From Escherichia coli (GTDB taxonomy: Bacteria; Pseudomonadota; Gammaproteobacteria; Enterobacterales; Enterobacteriaceae), in assembly GCF_050920415.1 (NCBI RefSeq), contig NZ_CP169309.1: a DNA stretch of 64,000 nucleotides; one strand, 5' to 3'. Below are positions 46,316 to 50,111 of this stretch, in pieces. The translations under genes were made by a program, and so were the position numbers. Position 1 is the first letter of the stretch, and each line of letters starts with the position of its first letter. The notes under the pieces were generated by a model. The model ran no database searches. It had not been told where the DNA came from and saw only the letters and a list, made by a program, of their open reading frames with translations.

Positions 46316-46849
46316 ATGAAAAAGTATATTATTCCGTTCGTGGCGACAACGTTGATATTCAGCGTAACAACCTTCGCCAAGGATATCGATCAAGGAACAC
46401 TAACCGTTAGAGGAGAAGTTGTTGATACAACGTGTTACTTTGTTAATGGTGATTCAACAACCGATATTGTTGTCGAAGATGTTGTAACCAGTGCAATGAA
46501 TCAACTTATTAATAATGAAATCTATACTTTAAAAACCGGTTCAACCGCTCATGACTTAGAAATTCAGTGTGATGGCAATACAGCACCAAATATCGAAGTA
46601 TTAGCCTCAGAGTTTGATGCTAATAACTTTACGTTGAATAAAGGAACTGCTGAAAACGTTGGCTTTGCCTTTTTCCTCGGTGATGGAAATATGACAAGAA
46701 TATTGCCAGGTGTAAAAACACCGCTGAAAGATAATGGTTCTGGACAATATTTTCTTAATTTAAATGCACAATATGAGCGTACAAGTACCGATCCTGTAAC
46801 AAAAGGCTCCGTGGAGTCAACCGTGACGATTAAAATCAGTGCAGATTAA
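46316..46849 (+). CDS. Fimbrial major subunit-like protein (chaperone-usher pilus)
   Basis: 177-aa ORF with signal peptide (MKKYIIPFVATTLIFSVTTFA), a conserved Cys pair and beta-rich composition; precedes the chaperone and usher genes. Confidence 0.7.
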   Translation: MKKYIIPFVATTLIFSVTTFAKDIDQGTLTVRGEVVDTTCYFVNGDSTTDIVVEDVVTSAMNQLINNEIYTLKTGSTAHDLEIQCDGNTAPNIEVLASEFDANNFTLNKGTAENVGFAFFLGDGNMTRILPGVKTPLKDNGSGQYFLNLNAQYERTSTDPVTKGSVESTVTIKISAD

Positions 46850-46899
46850 ATTTTTTATGCCGGTAGCTCTGCTACCGGTATTATTTACGGAGTGATTAC

Positions 46900-47581
46900 G
46901 TGAGAATTATAACAGCATTGCTGATGTCATTTTTTATTTTACCTGTTCATGCGGGTGTGGTCATCTATGGTACGCGTATTATCTATCCAGAAAAAAACAG
47001 AGAAGTTCTCGTACAGTTAATGAATCAAAGCAAAAATGCCTCTTTGATTCAGGCATGGATCGATGATGGAAACACAACTATCGCGCCAGAAAAAATTCAG
47101 GTCCCATTTATTCTCACTCCGCCAGTAAGTCGTGTAGCAGGAGGTTCTGGCCAACAACTAAAAATAAAAAATGCCAAACAATTTACCTCACAATAAAGAA
47201 AGTTTATTTTATCTAAATGTTATAGACATCCCTCCAAACAACCCACAAAATGCAGGAAAGAACAAAATTAAACTTGCATTACAAAACCGTATAAAGTTAT
47301 TTTGGCGTCCCGAAGGCGTAGCGCCGGTAGATAAAAAAAGCCTGTCTCAATTAAATATCAAAAAGAAAGATAATGCCATCTCAATAAACAATGAAACAGC
47401 GAACTGGATAACAGTTACAACTATCAAAGCCCAAAATGTGAAAGTTAATAATGAAAGTATATTACTACCTCCATTTTCTAATAACGACATTACATTAAAA
47501 AATAACAACGCCTCAGAGTATGAACTAACGGTAGTTGATGATTACGGGAATAATATCAATAGTAAAATCGCTGCAAAATAA
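46900..47581 (+). pseudogene. Periplasmic fimbrial chaperone (PapD/FimC family) with a +1 frameshift
   Basis: ORFs 46900..47196 and 47171..47581 in different frames. The N-part carries GVVIYGTRIIYPE and PFILTPP; the C-part carries NNLPHNKESLFYLNVIDIPP and IKLFWRP. The frames join if one A is removed from GCCAAAC near 47175. Confidence 0.8.
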
Positions 47582-47593
47582 CAGGTAAAAGTC

Positions 47594-49139
47594 ATGTTAA
47601 GAACGACACGATGGGTCGCTGCAATTATTATTTTGTATTCTTTTCCAGGTTATGCTGAAGAAACTTTTGATACACACTTTATGATCGGCGGCATGAGAGG
47701 AGAAAAAGTTTCTGAATATCATTTAGATAATAAACAACCGCTTCCAGGAAACTACGAACTTGATGTTTATGTAAACCACCAGTGGCGTGGAAAACAAGAT
47801 ATCATGATCCCAGAGTCACCAGCCAAACCATGTCTGCCTGAGGAGCTGTTCACCAAACTGGGGGTGAAGACCGATAAGATCAATACAGAAGATAATTGTA
47901 TTTCACTGGATGAAGCAGTTCATGGTGGTCAATATCAGTGAACACCGACTAAATTTAACGATCCCACAGGCGTATATCATTGAACTTGAAAGAGGCTACG
48001 TTCCCCCAGAAAGTTGGGATCGCGGCATTGATGCTTTTTATACCTCCTATAATTTAAGTCAGTATCGCTCTTATGACAGCAATAATAACAGTAATACAGC
48101 CAGTTATGGCCGATTTAACAGCGGATTAAATTTATTTAGTTGGCAGATACACTCTGATGCCAGCTATAGCAAACCTGATGATATGAGAGGCACATGACAA
48201 AGTAATACTCTTTACCTGGAACATGGCTGGTCGCAAATATTAAGCACAATTCAGATAGGAGAAAATTATACATCCTCACTCATATTCGACTCTCTGCGAT
48301 TTAGCGGAATACGCTTATTTCGCGATATGCAAATGTTACCTGATTCCATGCAGAGCTTTACACCCTTAGTACAAGGTATTGCGCAAAGTAATGCATTGAT
48401 AACGGTTTCGCAAAATGGCTACATCATTTACCAAAAAGAGGTTCCCCCGGGACCATTTACTATCGCAGATTTGCAACTTTCGGGCAGCGGCTCTGATCTC
48501 GATGTCAGCATAAAAGAAGCAGATGGTAGTGTTCGTTCCTTTTTGGTGCCCTACTCTTCCGTGCCCAACATGCTGCAACCAGGTGTTTCAAATTTCGATT
48601 TTATCGCCGGACGCAGTAAGATATATGGTGTAAAGAATCAGGAGGACTTTCTCGAGGCAAATTATATATATGGCCTCAACAATCTTTTGACACTTTATGG
48701 CGGTACGATTTTATCCGATAACTATAATGCTATAACCCTGGGAAATGGTTGGAATACACCGCTGGGTGCCATCTCTTTTGACGCTACCCGATCGAGTAGT
48801 AAGTTAAATAATGATATAACACACGAAGGTACGAGCTATCAGGTTGCCTATAATAAATATCTAGTGCAAACGGCTACTCGCTTTAGCGTGGCCGCCTGGC
48901 GTTATGCTTCGCAGGATTACAGGACATTCAGCGACCATCTTTACGAAAATGATAAACACAATCATCATAGTGAATATGATGATTTTTATGATATTGGCAG
49001 AAAAAATAGCCTTTCTGCCAATATTATGCAACCTTTATCCACCGGCATAAAAATTGCTCTCAACGATGAACAGAACTTATTTTGTACCATTACTTTTAAA
49101 AACGTTATCGATGAAAATAAAACATATATATGTCAGTAA
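47594..49139 (+). pseudogene. Fimbrial usher (FimD/PapC family), two frameshifts and C-terminal truncation
   Basis: Three ORF fragments (47594..47941, 47910..48197, 48327..49139) are collinear with the N-terminal ~half of FimD-like ushers (YELDVYVN, RLNLTIPQAYI, PPGPFTIADL, LVPYSSVP, LGNGWNTPLGAISFDATRS). The C-terminal ~400 residues expected for an usher are absent. Confidence 0.8.
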
Positions 49140-49151
49140 AAGGAGTTTACT

Positions 49152-50111
49152 ATGAAGAGGCTTTTATTGCTCTCCTTGAGTCTATATTCTTTTATTGTGC
49201 AAAGTGCTCCCTGTACACTGACCAATGTCGGTGAACAACGTGGAACTTACACTCTAAAACCACTTAATATGAAAGGTAATCTCGCTGTTGAAAAAATTGA
49301 AAACACTGGAAATATCATTGAGTGTGCGGATTTGCAAGATACGACCAACGCCATTAAAGTTCATTTTTTAACACTGAACGCCTTAAGGTTTAAAGTGGGG
49401 GGGCGTCATTATATTATTAATTTTCCTTTTGAATCTAACGGTAAAAAAATAGAACTACCCGGTAAATCATCTTATAATTTAGAAGAAATCTTATCTGCAA
49501 TAAATTTCACGATCCCATATTCTATTACTTCGTTGCCAGATAATTCTTACATCTCAGATATTTTTCCAGGGGCACCTTTTCCTTTGTTATTCGAAATTGA
49601 GGTGAGCTCATGCATAGGGAGTAATACTAATTGTAACAGCGTCCGCTTTAACTTTAATTTAAATACCATTTTACAGGTTAACTTAATGACTTGTGGTTTT
49701 GAAGACAAATCCATCGACACTGGACGATTTGTACTGTCTCGTATCAATAGTGAAAATTATCAGTTTCATCATATAAGATTTGACTGCATCCAGGGCGAGC
49801 AAGGTGAATTAGTTTTTGAACCCAGTGATGTTGAATATTACTTTGAGCCGGTGACGATACAGGAGTCAGGAACCAGCATATTAAAAAATGAGTTAGAAAA
49901 TAGTGAGGAAGGTGCTGGTCAAGTAGGCTTTCAACTATCGAATGATGGTACGAATGAAATTCTGTATGGCAAAAGCAATAGCTATGCTTTTCAGCATCCC
50001 CATGAAGGAAGTAATCAGATTCCTCTTTTTATTCGCCCGCGTACATATGGAAACAATGTCTCAAGCGGGCAAATAATGAGCCGAGTCAAGATTGTGGTTA
50101 TATACAACTAA
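49152..50111 (+). CDS. Fimbrial adhesin/tip-subunit-like protein
   Basis: 319-aa ORF with signal peptide (MKRLLLLSLSLYSFIVQSA) and a beta-strand C-terminus (RVKIVVIYN); size fits a two-domain adhesin. Inference only. Confidence 0.55.
   Translation: MKRLLLLSLSLYSFIVQSAPCTLTNVGEQRGTYTLKPLNMKGNLAVEKIENTGNIIECADLQDTTNAIKVHFLTLNALRFKVGGRHYIINFPFESNGKKIELPGKSSYNLEEILSAINFTIPYSITSLPDNSYISDIFPGAPFPLLFEIEVSSCIGSNTNCNSVRFNFNLNTILQVNLMTCGFEDKSIDTGRFVLSRINSENYQFHHIRFDCIQGEQGELVFEPSDVEYYFEPVTIQESGTSILKNELENSEEGAGQVGFQLSNDGTNEILYGKSNSYAFQHPHEGSNQIPLFIRPRTYGNNVSSGQIMSRVKIVVIYN

Follow-up and report, generated by a model that had tools for sequence, protein, structure and literature searches.

Does a chaperone-usher (CU) operon that has kept both of its subunit genes still encode a pilus? 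The question is raised by positions 46316–50111 of a 64,000-nucleotide stretch of Escherichia coli DNA (RefSeq assembly GCF_050920415.1, contig NZ_CP169309.1), referred to below as the window. On its plus strand, the open reading frames (ORFs) listed for 44000–53000 make up a CU operon with genes for a major pilin, a chaperone, an usher and a predicted two-domain adhesin. With high confidence, we identify it as an allele, now pseudogenised, of the 'Yeh-like' gamma4 CU operon that sits between rpsT and nhaR in E. coli.

A Yeh-like operon between rpsT and nhaR

The operon stands in an island with rpsT (43851–44114) on one side and, downstream, nhaR (50149–51054, minus strand) and then nhaA (minus strand) on the other. 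The island is AT-rich, with a GC content of 25–42% from ~44.2 kb to 50 kb against ~50% in the flanks. Its plus-strand ORFs comprise one of 177 aa at 46316–46849, two that overlap in different frames at 46900–47196 and 47171–47581, three usher pieces at 47594–47941, 47910–48197 and 48327–49139, and one of 319 aa at 49152–50111. A sequence-only reading of the window had placed the four sets of genes at these coordinates, in this order and within the rpsT–nhaR island, with the two subunit genes intact. The ORF listing bears out the placement, and the pilin and adhesin ORFs are open as claimed.

Lesions were read against two references, the operon of E. coli 19KM1831 (L008), in which all four genes are intact (177, 227, 816 and 319 aa), and the O157:H7 operon (L002). 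Judged by alignment scores, homology of the operon genes to CU fimbrial genes is far above chance, because the orthologous usher of 19KM1831 reaches 1485 bits against NCBIfam PRK15217 (cut-off 933 bits) and carries the PapC_N, Usher and PapC_C domains, and the chaperone matches StcB at 9e-99. This usher, which shares 58% identity with YehB, can be aligned with FimD structures from one end to the other. The 19KM1831 chaperone has its best matches in StcB and PRK15218, and is 57% identical to YehC.

Locus and usher phylogeny have served to define fimbrial types (Wurpel et al. 2013, PLoS One 8:e52835; PMC3559732). By locus, gene order and usher similarity, the operon type here is the 'Yeh-like' gamma4 CU fimbriae of that work. 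Its Table S2 gives the gamma4 'Yeh-like' type the usher tags Z0022/ECs0022/ECUMN_0019/EC042_0022 and reports it absent from B2 strains and K-12; the legend separates intact from disrupted operons, and Yeh-like is intact in some strains and disrupted in others. Tag numbers of the Z0022 type are consistent with an operon beside nhaR, where the chromosome map begins. The usher would belong to the Yeh/Stc branch of gamma4, a placement made by similarity and literature rather than by a tree.

The position of the window operon, between rpsT with an espX1-like gene and nhaR, is the one found in O157:H7 and other E. coli (rpsT-espX1-[operon]-nhaR), and the four-gene order is that of the Yeh-like type. 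The region is ~93% identical in nucleotides to the intact 19KM1831 Yeh-like operon and to that of O157:H7. It differs from the common Yeh-like allele in that its haplotype is rare and divergent, with a lesion set of its own.

Over 5.85 kb, the window and E. coli MFDS1022581 (NZ_CP169399.1) are 100% identical. In the MFDS1022581 record, the RefSeq annotation (PGAP) reads fimbrial protein, chaperone 'frameshifted', usher 'frameshifted; internal stop; incomplete; missing C-terminus', and hypothetical protein. Thus, the operon type, its patchy disruption in E. coli and the pseudogene status of this very sequence are already on record.

Lesions of the chaperone and usher genes

Like CU operons in general, the window operon has a PapD-like chaperone gene and a PapC/FimD-like usher gene beside a pilin gene, both of them as pseudogenes. 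What it does not encode is the set that a functional assembly machine comprises, namely a full-length chaperone and an usher with complete barrel, plug and C-terminal domains.

The chaperone pseudogene (46900–47581, plus strand), recognised by alignment to intact alleles and by its PGAP label, has lost 2 bp at 47166/47167, after codon 89 of 227, and runs into a premature stop at 47194–47196. At this site the intact allele reads ...ATAAGAAAAATG... and the window ...ATA--AAAAATG..., with an A6 run left at 47166–47171; in wider context, the two read ...AAAATAAGAAAAATGCC... and ...AAAATA--AAAAATGCC..., respectively. In five aligned close relatives only the G is lost, leaving A7. The two frame pieces of the window jointly reproduce the 227-aa protein. 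A +1 frameshift by an extra A near 47175 had been proposed for this gene. The frameshift and its +1 effect are real, whereas the alignment shows a loss of 2 bp and no added base.

The usher pseudogene (47594–49139, plus strand) is in three pieces, as delimited by alignments and by the Pfam domains of the intact ortholog (PapC_N 24–159, Usher 176–733 and PapC_C 743–804). Compared with the 816-aa intact usher, the pieces cover residues 1–115 (90% identity), 117–489 (96%) and 783–816 (85%). At 47931/47932, 11 bp (ATATCAGTGGG) are deleted between two ATATCAGTG direct repeats, which on alignment is a classic replication-slippage event. In the native frame, the codon at 48195–48197 is changed from TGG to TGA, giving the nonsense codon W205*. 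At 49040/49041, an internal in-frame deletion of 894 bp with CCA microhomology has taken out codons 487–784 of 816 (298 residues), and the last 32 codons with the native stop are kept in frame after it. Because this deletion spans codons 487–784, Usher-domain residues 487–733 and most of PapC_C are removed.

The sequence-only reading had given the usher two frameshifts and no C-terminal half. One frameshift is confirmed as the 11-bp deletion. The second break is a nonsense codon instead, because the second and third ORF pieces share a frame. Nor is the C-terminal half simply missing, as the deletion is internal and in-frame, and the C-terminal 32 codons and the stop are retained.

The pilin and adhesin genes

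The major fimbrial subunit gene (46316–46849, plus strand, 177 aa) is intact by alignment to the intact operon, and its product matches the Pfam Fimbrial domain (E of 2e-8). Against the NCBIfam YehD-like model it scores 114 bits, under the model's 136-bit cut-off. The pilin is 89% identical to the subunit of the intact 19KM1831 operon and 26–27% identical to K-12 YehD, and its mature N-terminal stretch KDIDQGTLTVRG resembles ADVDTGTLTIKG of YehD. In each of the five aligned relatives with the 894-bp usher deletion, this ORF is open. Within the haplotype, non-synonymous change in the pilin exceeds synonymous change (pN/pS ~1.7, from small counts).

In the pilin–chaperone gap, a stem-loop with an 11-bp stem lies at 46857–46881 (plus strand). 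The enclosing 61-nt stretch folds at −20.7 kcal/mol (z = −4.3), and 37 nt at 46858–46894 are invariant in all aligned alleles, with ~7% divergence elsewhere. From this folding and invariance, the hairpin is probably an intra-operon attenuator or mRNA stabiliser. Incidentally, an invertible switch around the pilin gene was considered on account of a 14-nt inverted repeat (46209–46222 and 46846–46859) that looked non-random against whole-window shuffles. Conservation of the repeat does not extend to the intact alleles L002 and L008, and the switch was rejected as chance in AT-rich DNA.

The adhesin-like gene (49152–50111, plus strand, 319 aa) is intact, and its product is 90% identical to the adhesin of the 19KM1831 operon. 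Its Pfam Fimbrial match is weak (residues 180–319, E of 0.013). An AlphaFold2 model from 13 sequences has a pLDDT of 86 and a pTM of 0.68. With this model, a full-length Foldseek search gives FocH, FimH, CsuE, PapG and LpfD as the best matches (E of 5e-10 to 2e-6). Alignment with FimH, FocH, PapG and LpfD extends over both domains with a Foldseek probability of 1.0, and the C-terminal half resembles FimG, FimA and the FimH pilin domain. On the other hand, sequence identity to FimH-type adhesins is 10–15%, and the TM-scores are ~0.3, perhaps because the two domains are oriented differently. A two-domain tip adhesin, with an N-terminal receptor-binding domain and a C-terminal pilin domain, is thereby supported at the level of the predicted fold, and it is at this level that the earlier label of an adhesin-like subunit holds.

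In sequence searches with the window adhesin, no match at E ≤ 0.01 was found in the PDB, a word-index protein search returned E. coli alleles and fragments only, and an exhaustive search of representative proteins found a few full-length relatives, at 21–42% identity. The closest full-length relative outside E. coli is a 319-aa protein (P0011; L012 7001–7960) with 42% identity. It comes from a sequencing-run assembly, in which its locus is of the yeh/stc type with mrp, DUF2574, pilin, chaperone, usher, adhesin and rcnB. Adhesin genes appear to have been exchanged among Yeh-type operons, judging from this comparison, because P0011 is 42% identical at a yeh/stc-type locus and K-12 YehA has no similarity.

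The adhesin gene contains two homopolymer runs, G7 at 49397–49403 and A7 at 49443–49449. Both vary among relatives, the G run being one base shorter or longer in some and the A run being A8 in others. It is this A8 that, as a frameshift, splits the adhesin of the O157:H7 strain G5295. Part of this run-length variation may be long-read sequencing error. In three of the five aligned relatives of the haplotype, the adhesin is frameshifted within the G and A runs.

Inheritance of the lesions and alternative readings

How real the lesions are was examined in 5,426 complete E. coli genomes, ~4,220 of which have some match to the operon and ~1,190 a match covering at least 80% of it. A 100-nt probe spanning the 894-bp junction finds a match over its whole length in exactly eight of these genomes and in none of the other 5,418; elsewhere only half of the probe matches. 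The eight are independent assemblies from different laboratories, and the carrier records examined name South Korea, Thailand, France, Tibet, Viet Nam and the USA as places, and human, bovine, pig and food as hosts or sources. In a multiple alignment, the chaperone G loss is common to all five aligned relatives, and the 11-bp usher deletion is present in four of them, 2013C-4282 being the one without it. Going by these alignments, the main lesions are real inherited mutations, because the 894-bp junction occurs in eight independent genomes and the chaperone G loss and 11-bp deletion are shared by relatives.

An order of events can be proposed from the same distribution. The 894-bp deletion and the chaperone G loss would be the first events, because they are found in all eight haplotype genomes and in all five aligned ones, respectively. 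The 11-bp usher deletion would have come later, and the nonsense TGA and the additional A loss are private to the window strain.

Some observations weigh against the operon being a dead allele with genuine lesions. The TGA at 48195–48197 and the A6 run (instead of A7) are seen only in the window and one identical public genome. Furthermore, dN/dS of the window allele against intact alleles is low, 0.07–0.20. Compared with the common allele, dS is 0.27–0.40 in the pilin, chaperone and adhesin and 0.12 in the N-terminal part of the usher. A low dN/dS combined with these dS values points to an old, once-functional allele rather than to drift after inactivation, and dN/dS leaves the inactivation undated. 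Sliding-window differences indicate mosaic recombination among alleles; at 48616–49015, for instance, hardly any difference separates the window from the common allele, and three relatives of its own haplotype (L005–L007) differ there. This recombination accounts for the within-haplotype dN/dS of the pseudogenes (~0.23) and makes it unusable as a test of current selection. Recombination mosaics thus confound within-haplotype dN/dS, and selection on the two open ORFs might in principle continue.

The two private lesions bear on the idea that the operon is truly intact and that its frameshifts and deletions are errors of sequencing or assembly. The chaperone lesion lies in an A6 homopolymer run, a classic site of long-read error, and both this run length and the nonsense codon are private to one genome. 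Nevertheless, without both private lesions the chaperone and usher are, by the alignments, still dead. The eight independently assembled junctions, the G loss in five of five relatives and the 11-bp deletion in four of five argue against artefacts, as do the direct repeats and the CCA microhomology at the two deletions, both typical of real replication slippage. The assembly-error objection therefore fails for the main lesions, and we regard an intact operon as very improbable. Even less credible is a reversible phase-OFF state, in which the operon would be turned on and off, like a contingency locus, by homopolymer slippage within the A-run of the chaperone. The site does vary, being A6 in the window, A7 in five relatives and AAGAAAAA in intact alleles, and the G and A runs of the adhesin are likewise variable in length. 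However, repair of the chaperone frame leaves the 11-bp and 894-bp usher deletions and the stop codon in place, making a functional ON state impossible. Moreover, the chaperone site of intact alleles lacks an uninterrupted run, and the run-length variation among relatives may be partly sequencing error.

The open subunit genes allow a further alternative, that the orphan pilin and adhesin are exported and assembled in trans by a paralogous pair, most plausibly YehC/YehB, with the locus serving as a subunit donor. Both ORFs are intact in the window, the pilin is so in all five aligned relatives with the 894-bp deletion, and the closest paralogs of the chaperone and usher are those of Yeh (57% and 58%). 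The likeness of KDIDQGTLTVRG to YehD ADVDTGTLTIKG might also be taken to favour it, if a donor-strand role of this stretch is assumed by analogy. Against it, the pilin and YehD share only 27% identity, no similarity between the adhesin and YehA can be detected, and the chaperones and ushers of CU systems usually show specificity for cognate subunits. Adhesin frameshifts, in three of five haplotype relatives and three of the seven genomes sampled with a deletion of the 5′ operon, argue against selective upkeep of that gene, and the pilin has a within-haplotype pN/pS of ~1.7 (small counts). We give assembly in trans a slim chance, and a somewhat slimmer one to the notion that the dead operon diversifies the tip or shaft of another pilus, its orphan pilin and adhesin being incorporated into fibres by the Yeh chaperone and usher. 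That the pilin and adhesin are still open is most likely due to short genes and recent inactivation, not to continued use.

What the pseudogenised operon has lost can be described from the known course of CU assembly. In the FimC/FimD and PapD/PapC systems, pilins need a donor strand from the chaperone to fold and to escape periplasmic degradation. Pilin polymerisation needs a complete usher barrel and the C-terminal domains. By analogy, the chaperone of an intact copy would fold pilins in the periplasm by donor-strand complementation, and the usher would polymerise them through its β-barrel pore into a fibre tipped with the two-domain adhesin. With a chaperone truncated at residue 89 and an usher with three independent lesions, the window copy would form no fibre by its own machinery. 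Any pilin or adhesin produced should then undergo degradation, except where it is handled by a paralogous system. The statement of the sequence-only reading that the operon cannot assemble fibres as encoded is thus supported, since both assembly genes are pseudogenes and PGAP concurs in the identical genome, although non-function itself is inferred.

The locus across E. coli

The state of the locus in other E. coli was classified from an evenly spaced sample of the match ranking and from annotated examples. Of the genomes with a match, roughly one in four has a full-length operon, and some of these operons are fully intact (19KM1831). In O157:H7 (L002), the pilin, chaperone and usher are intact and the adhesin has an A8 frameshift. 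About 55% of the matching genomes have lost the pilin, the chaperone and the 5′ part of the usher, and keep 1332 bp of the 3′ usher and the adhesin gene; in this class, the adhesin is frameshifted in three of the seven genomes sampled. Another ~12% are of the K-12 type, with an IS1 beside a 138-bp adhesin remnant. Read from these sequences, the Yeh-like locus is one that is being lost by several independent routes in E. coli.

Outside E. coli, a scan of one genome per species in GTDB with a degenerate 12-codon usher motif, a narrow test, found no orthologous operon in another species. Its sole match was a 4.3-kb contig labelled 'MAG: Bacillota bacterium' (JAEWTL010000002.1; L020) that is 98% identical to the 19KM1831 operon. 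To judge from this identity, the contig is probably E. coli contamination binned into a Bacillota metagenome-assembled genome (MAG).

The window operon has a modest value as a lesion-by-lesion case of one pilus operon inactivated independently in different E. coli lineages. The lesions across lineages are of different kinds, namely microhomology deletion, repeat slippage, homopolymer indels and IS1.

Relation to Yeh, Stc and Yhl

The Yeh operon (yehDCBA) and Salmonella Stc have the same minimal architecture of pilin, chaperone, usher and tip adhesin, and the chaperone of the intact rpsT–nhaR operon scores best against the StcB model. In contrast, the Yeh operon sits elsewhere, between rcnB and mrp, and the window operon has no yehE-like DUF2574 gene.

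Yeh-like PCR primers with a 688-bp product have been published, together with the remark that the roles of Yeh-like fimbriae were still to be established (PMC8249706). These primers match the usher in O157:H7 L002 (both exact) and in 19KM1831 (one mismatch in the reverse primer), with a 688-bp amplicon, and they have no match at the yeh loci. Presence calls of 'Yeh-like' by PCR or BLAST can count dead operons as positive.

The name Yhl has been used for a 'Yeh-like' pilus of four-gene architecture, and a crystal structure of the receptor-binding domain of its 'YhlD' was reported from strain Sakai (8V9V), with a conserved W142 in an α-helical flap (Sci Adv 2026; PMC12778044). In a PDB search, 8V9V is 100% identical to residues 21–191 of the O157:H7 adhesin at the yeh locus beside rcnB (L013 1446–2480, F6294). 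That locus (L013) reads rcnB, adhesin, yehB, chaperone, pilin, DUF2574 and apbC. The window adhesin does not have the identity to the crystallised domain, including W142, that a YhlD would have; it contains no tryptophan, and its AlphaFold2 model has one short helix only in the N-terminal domain. It is therefore not YhlD as that paper uses the name, because 8V9V is the yeh-locus adhesin and the window adhesin has neither a PDB match nor a tryptophan. On sequence identity, 'YhlD' of PMC12778044 is the phylogroup-E allele at the yeh locus and not the rpsT–nhaR adhesin, which is a clash of names in the literature. A by-product for specialists is that the rpsT–nhaR adhesin differs from the crystallised 'YhlD' and has no match among the structures in the PDB copy searched.

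Neighbouring elements

A G+C-rich hairpin at 50117–50141 lies between the adhesin gene and nhaR, which are convergent. Its enclosing 51 nt fold on both strands, at −16.2 kcal/mol on the plus strand (z = −3.0) and −16.5 kcal/mol on the minus strand (z = −2.4), and the hairpin is likely a bidirectional terminator. The flanking nhaR protein is identical among the non-K-12 strains compared. An Rfam scan of 43000–56000 at gathering thresholds found no RNA family. A promoter scan gave 14 sites against 13.7 expected and was uninformative.

The 5′ part of the AT-rich island holds an intact gene for an EspX1-like pentapeptide-repeat effector (44600–46072, plus strand, 490 aa), identified by its identity to EspX1. 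The protein is only 72% identical to O157:H7 EspX1 in amino acids and is extended by 17 residues at its C-terminus. Other genomes have espX1 annotated at the orthologous position, and the gene is frameshifted or split by IS1 in many E. coli.

A second strain-variable insertion occupies 52516–56178 (minus strand) in the nhaA–dnaJ gap, in place of the mokC of O157:H7. PADLOC gave no hits on the proteins of the neighbouring island, those of this insertion included, and Rfam gave none in the insertion either. Three proteins are encoded by it: one of 421 aa, whose N-terminal zinc-binding domain is of the IS1/IS1595 type, a sulfatase-like one of 497 aa (matching arylsulfatase/choline-sulfatase models below their cut-offs) and one of 190 aa.

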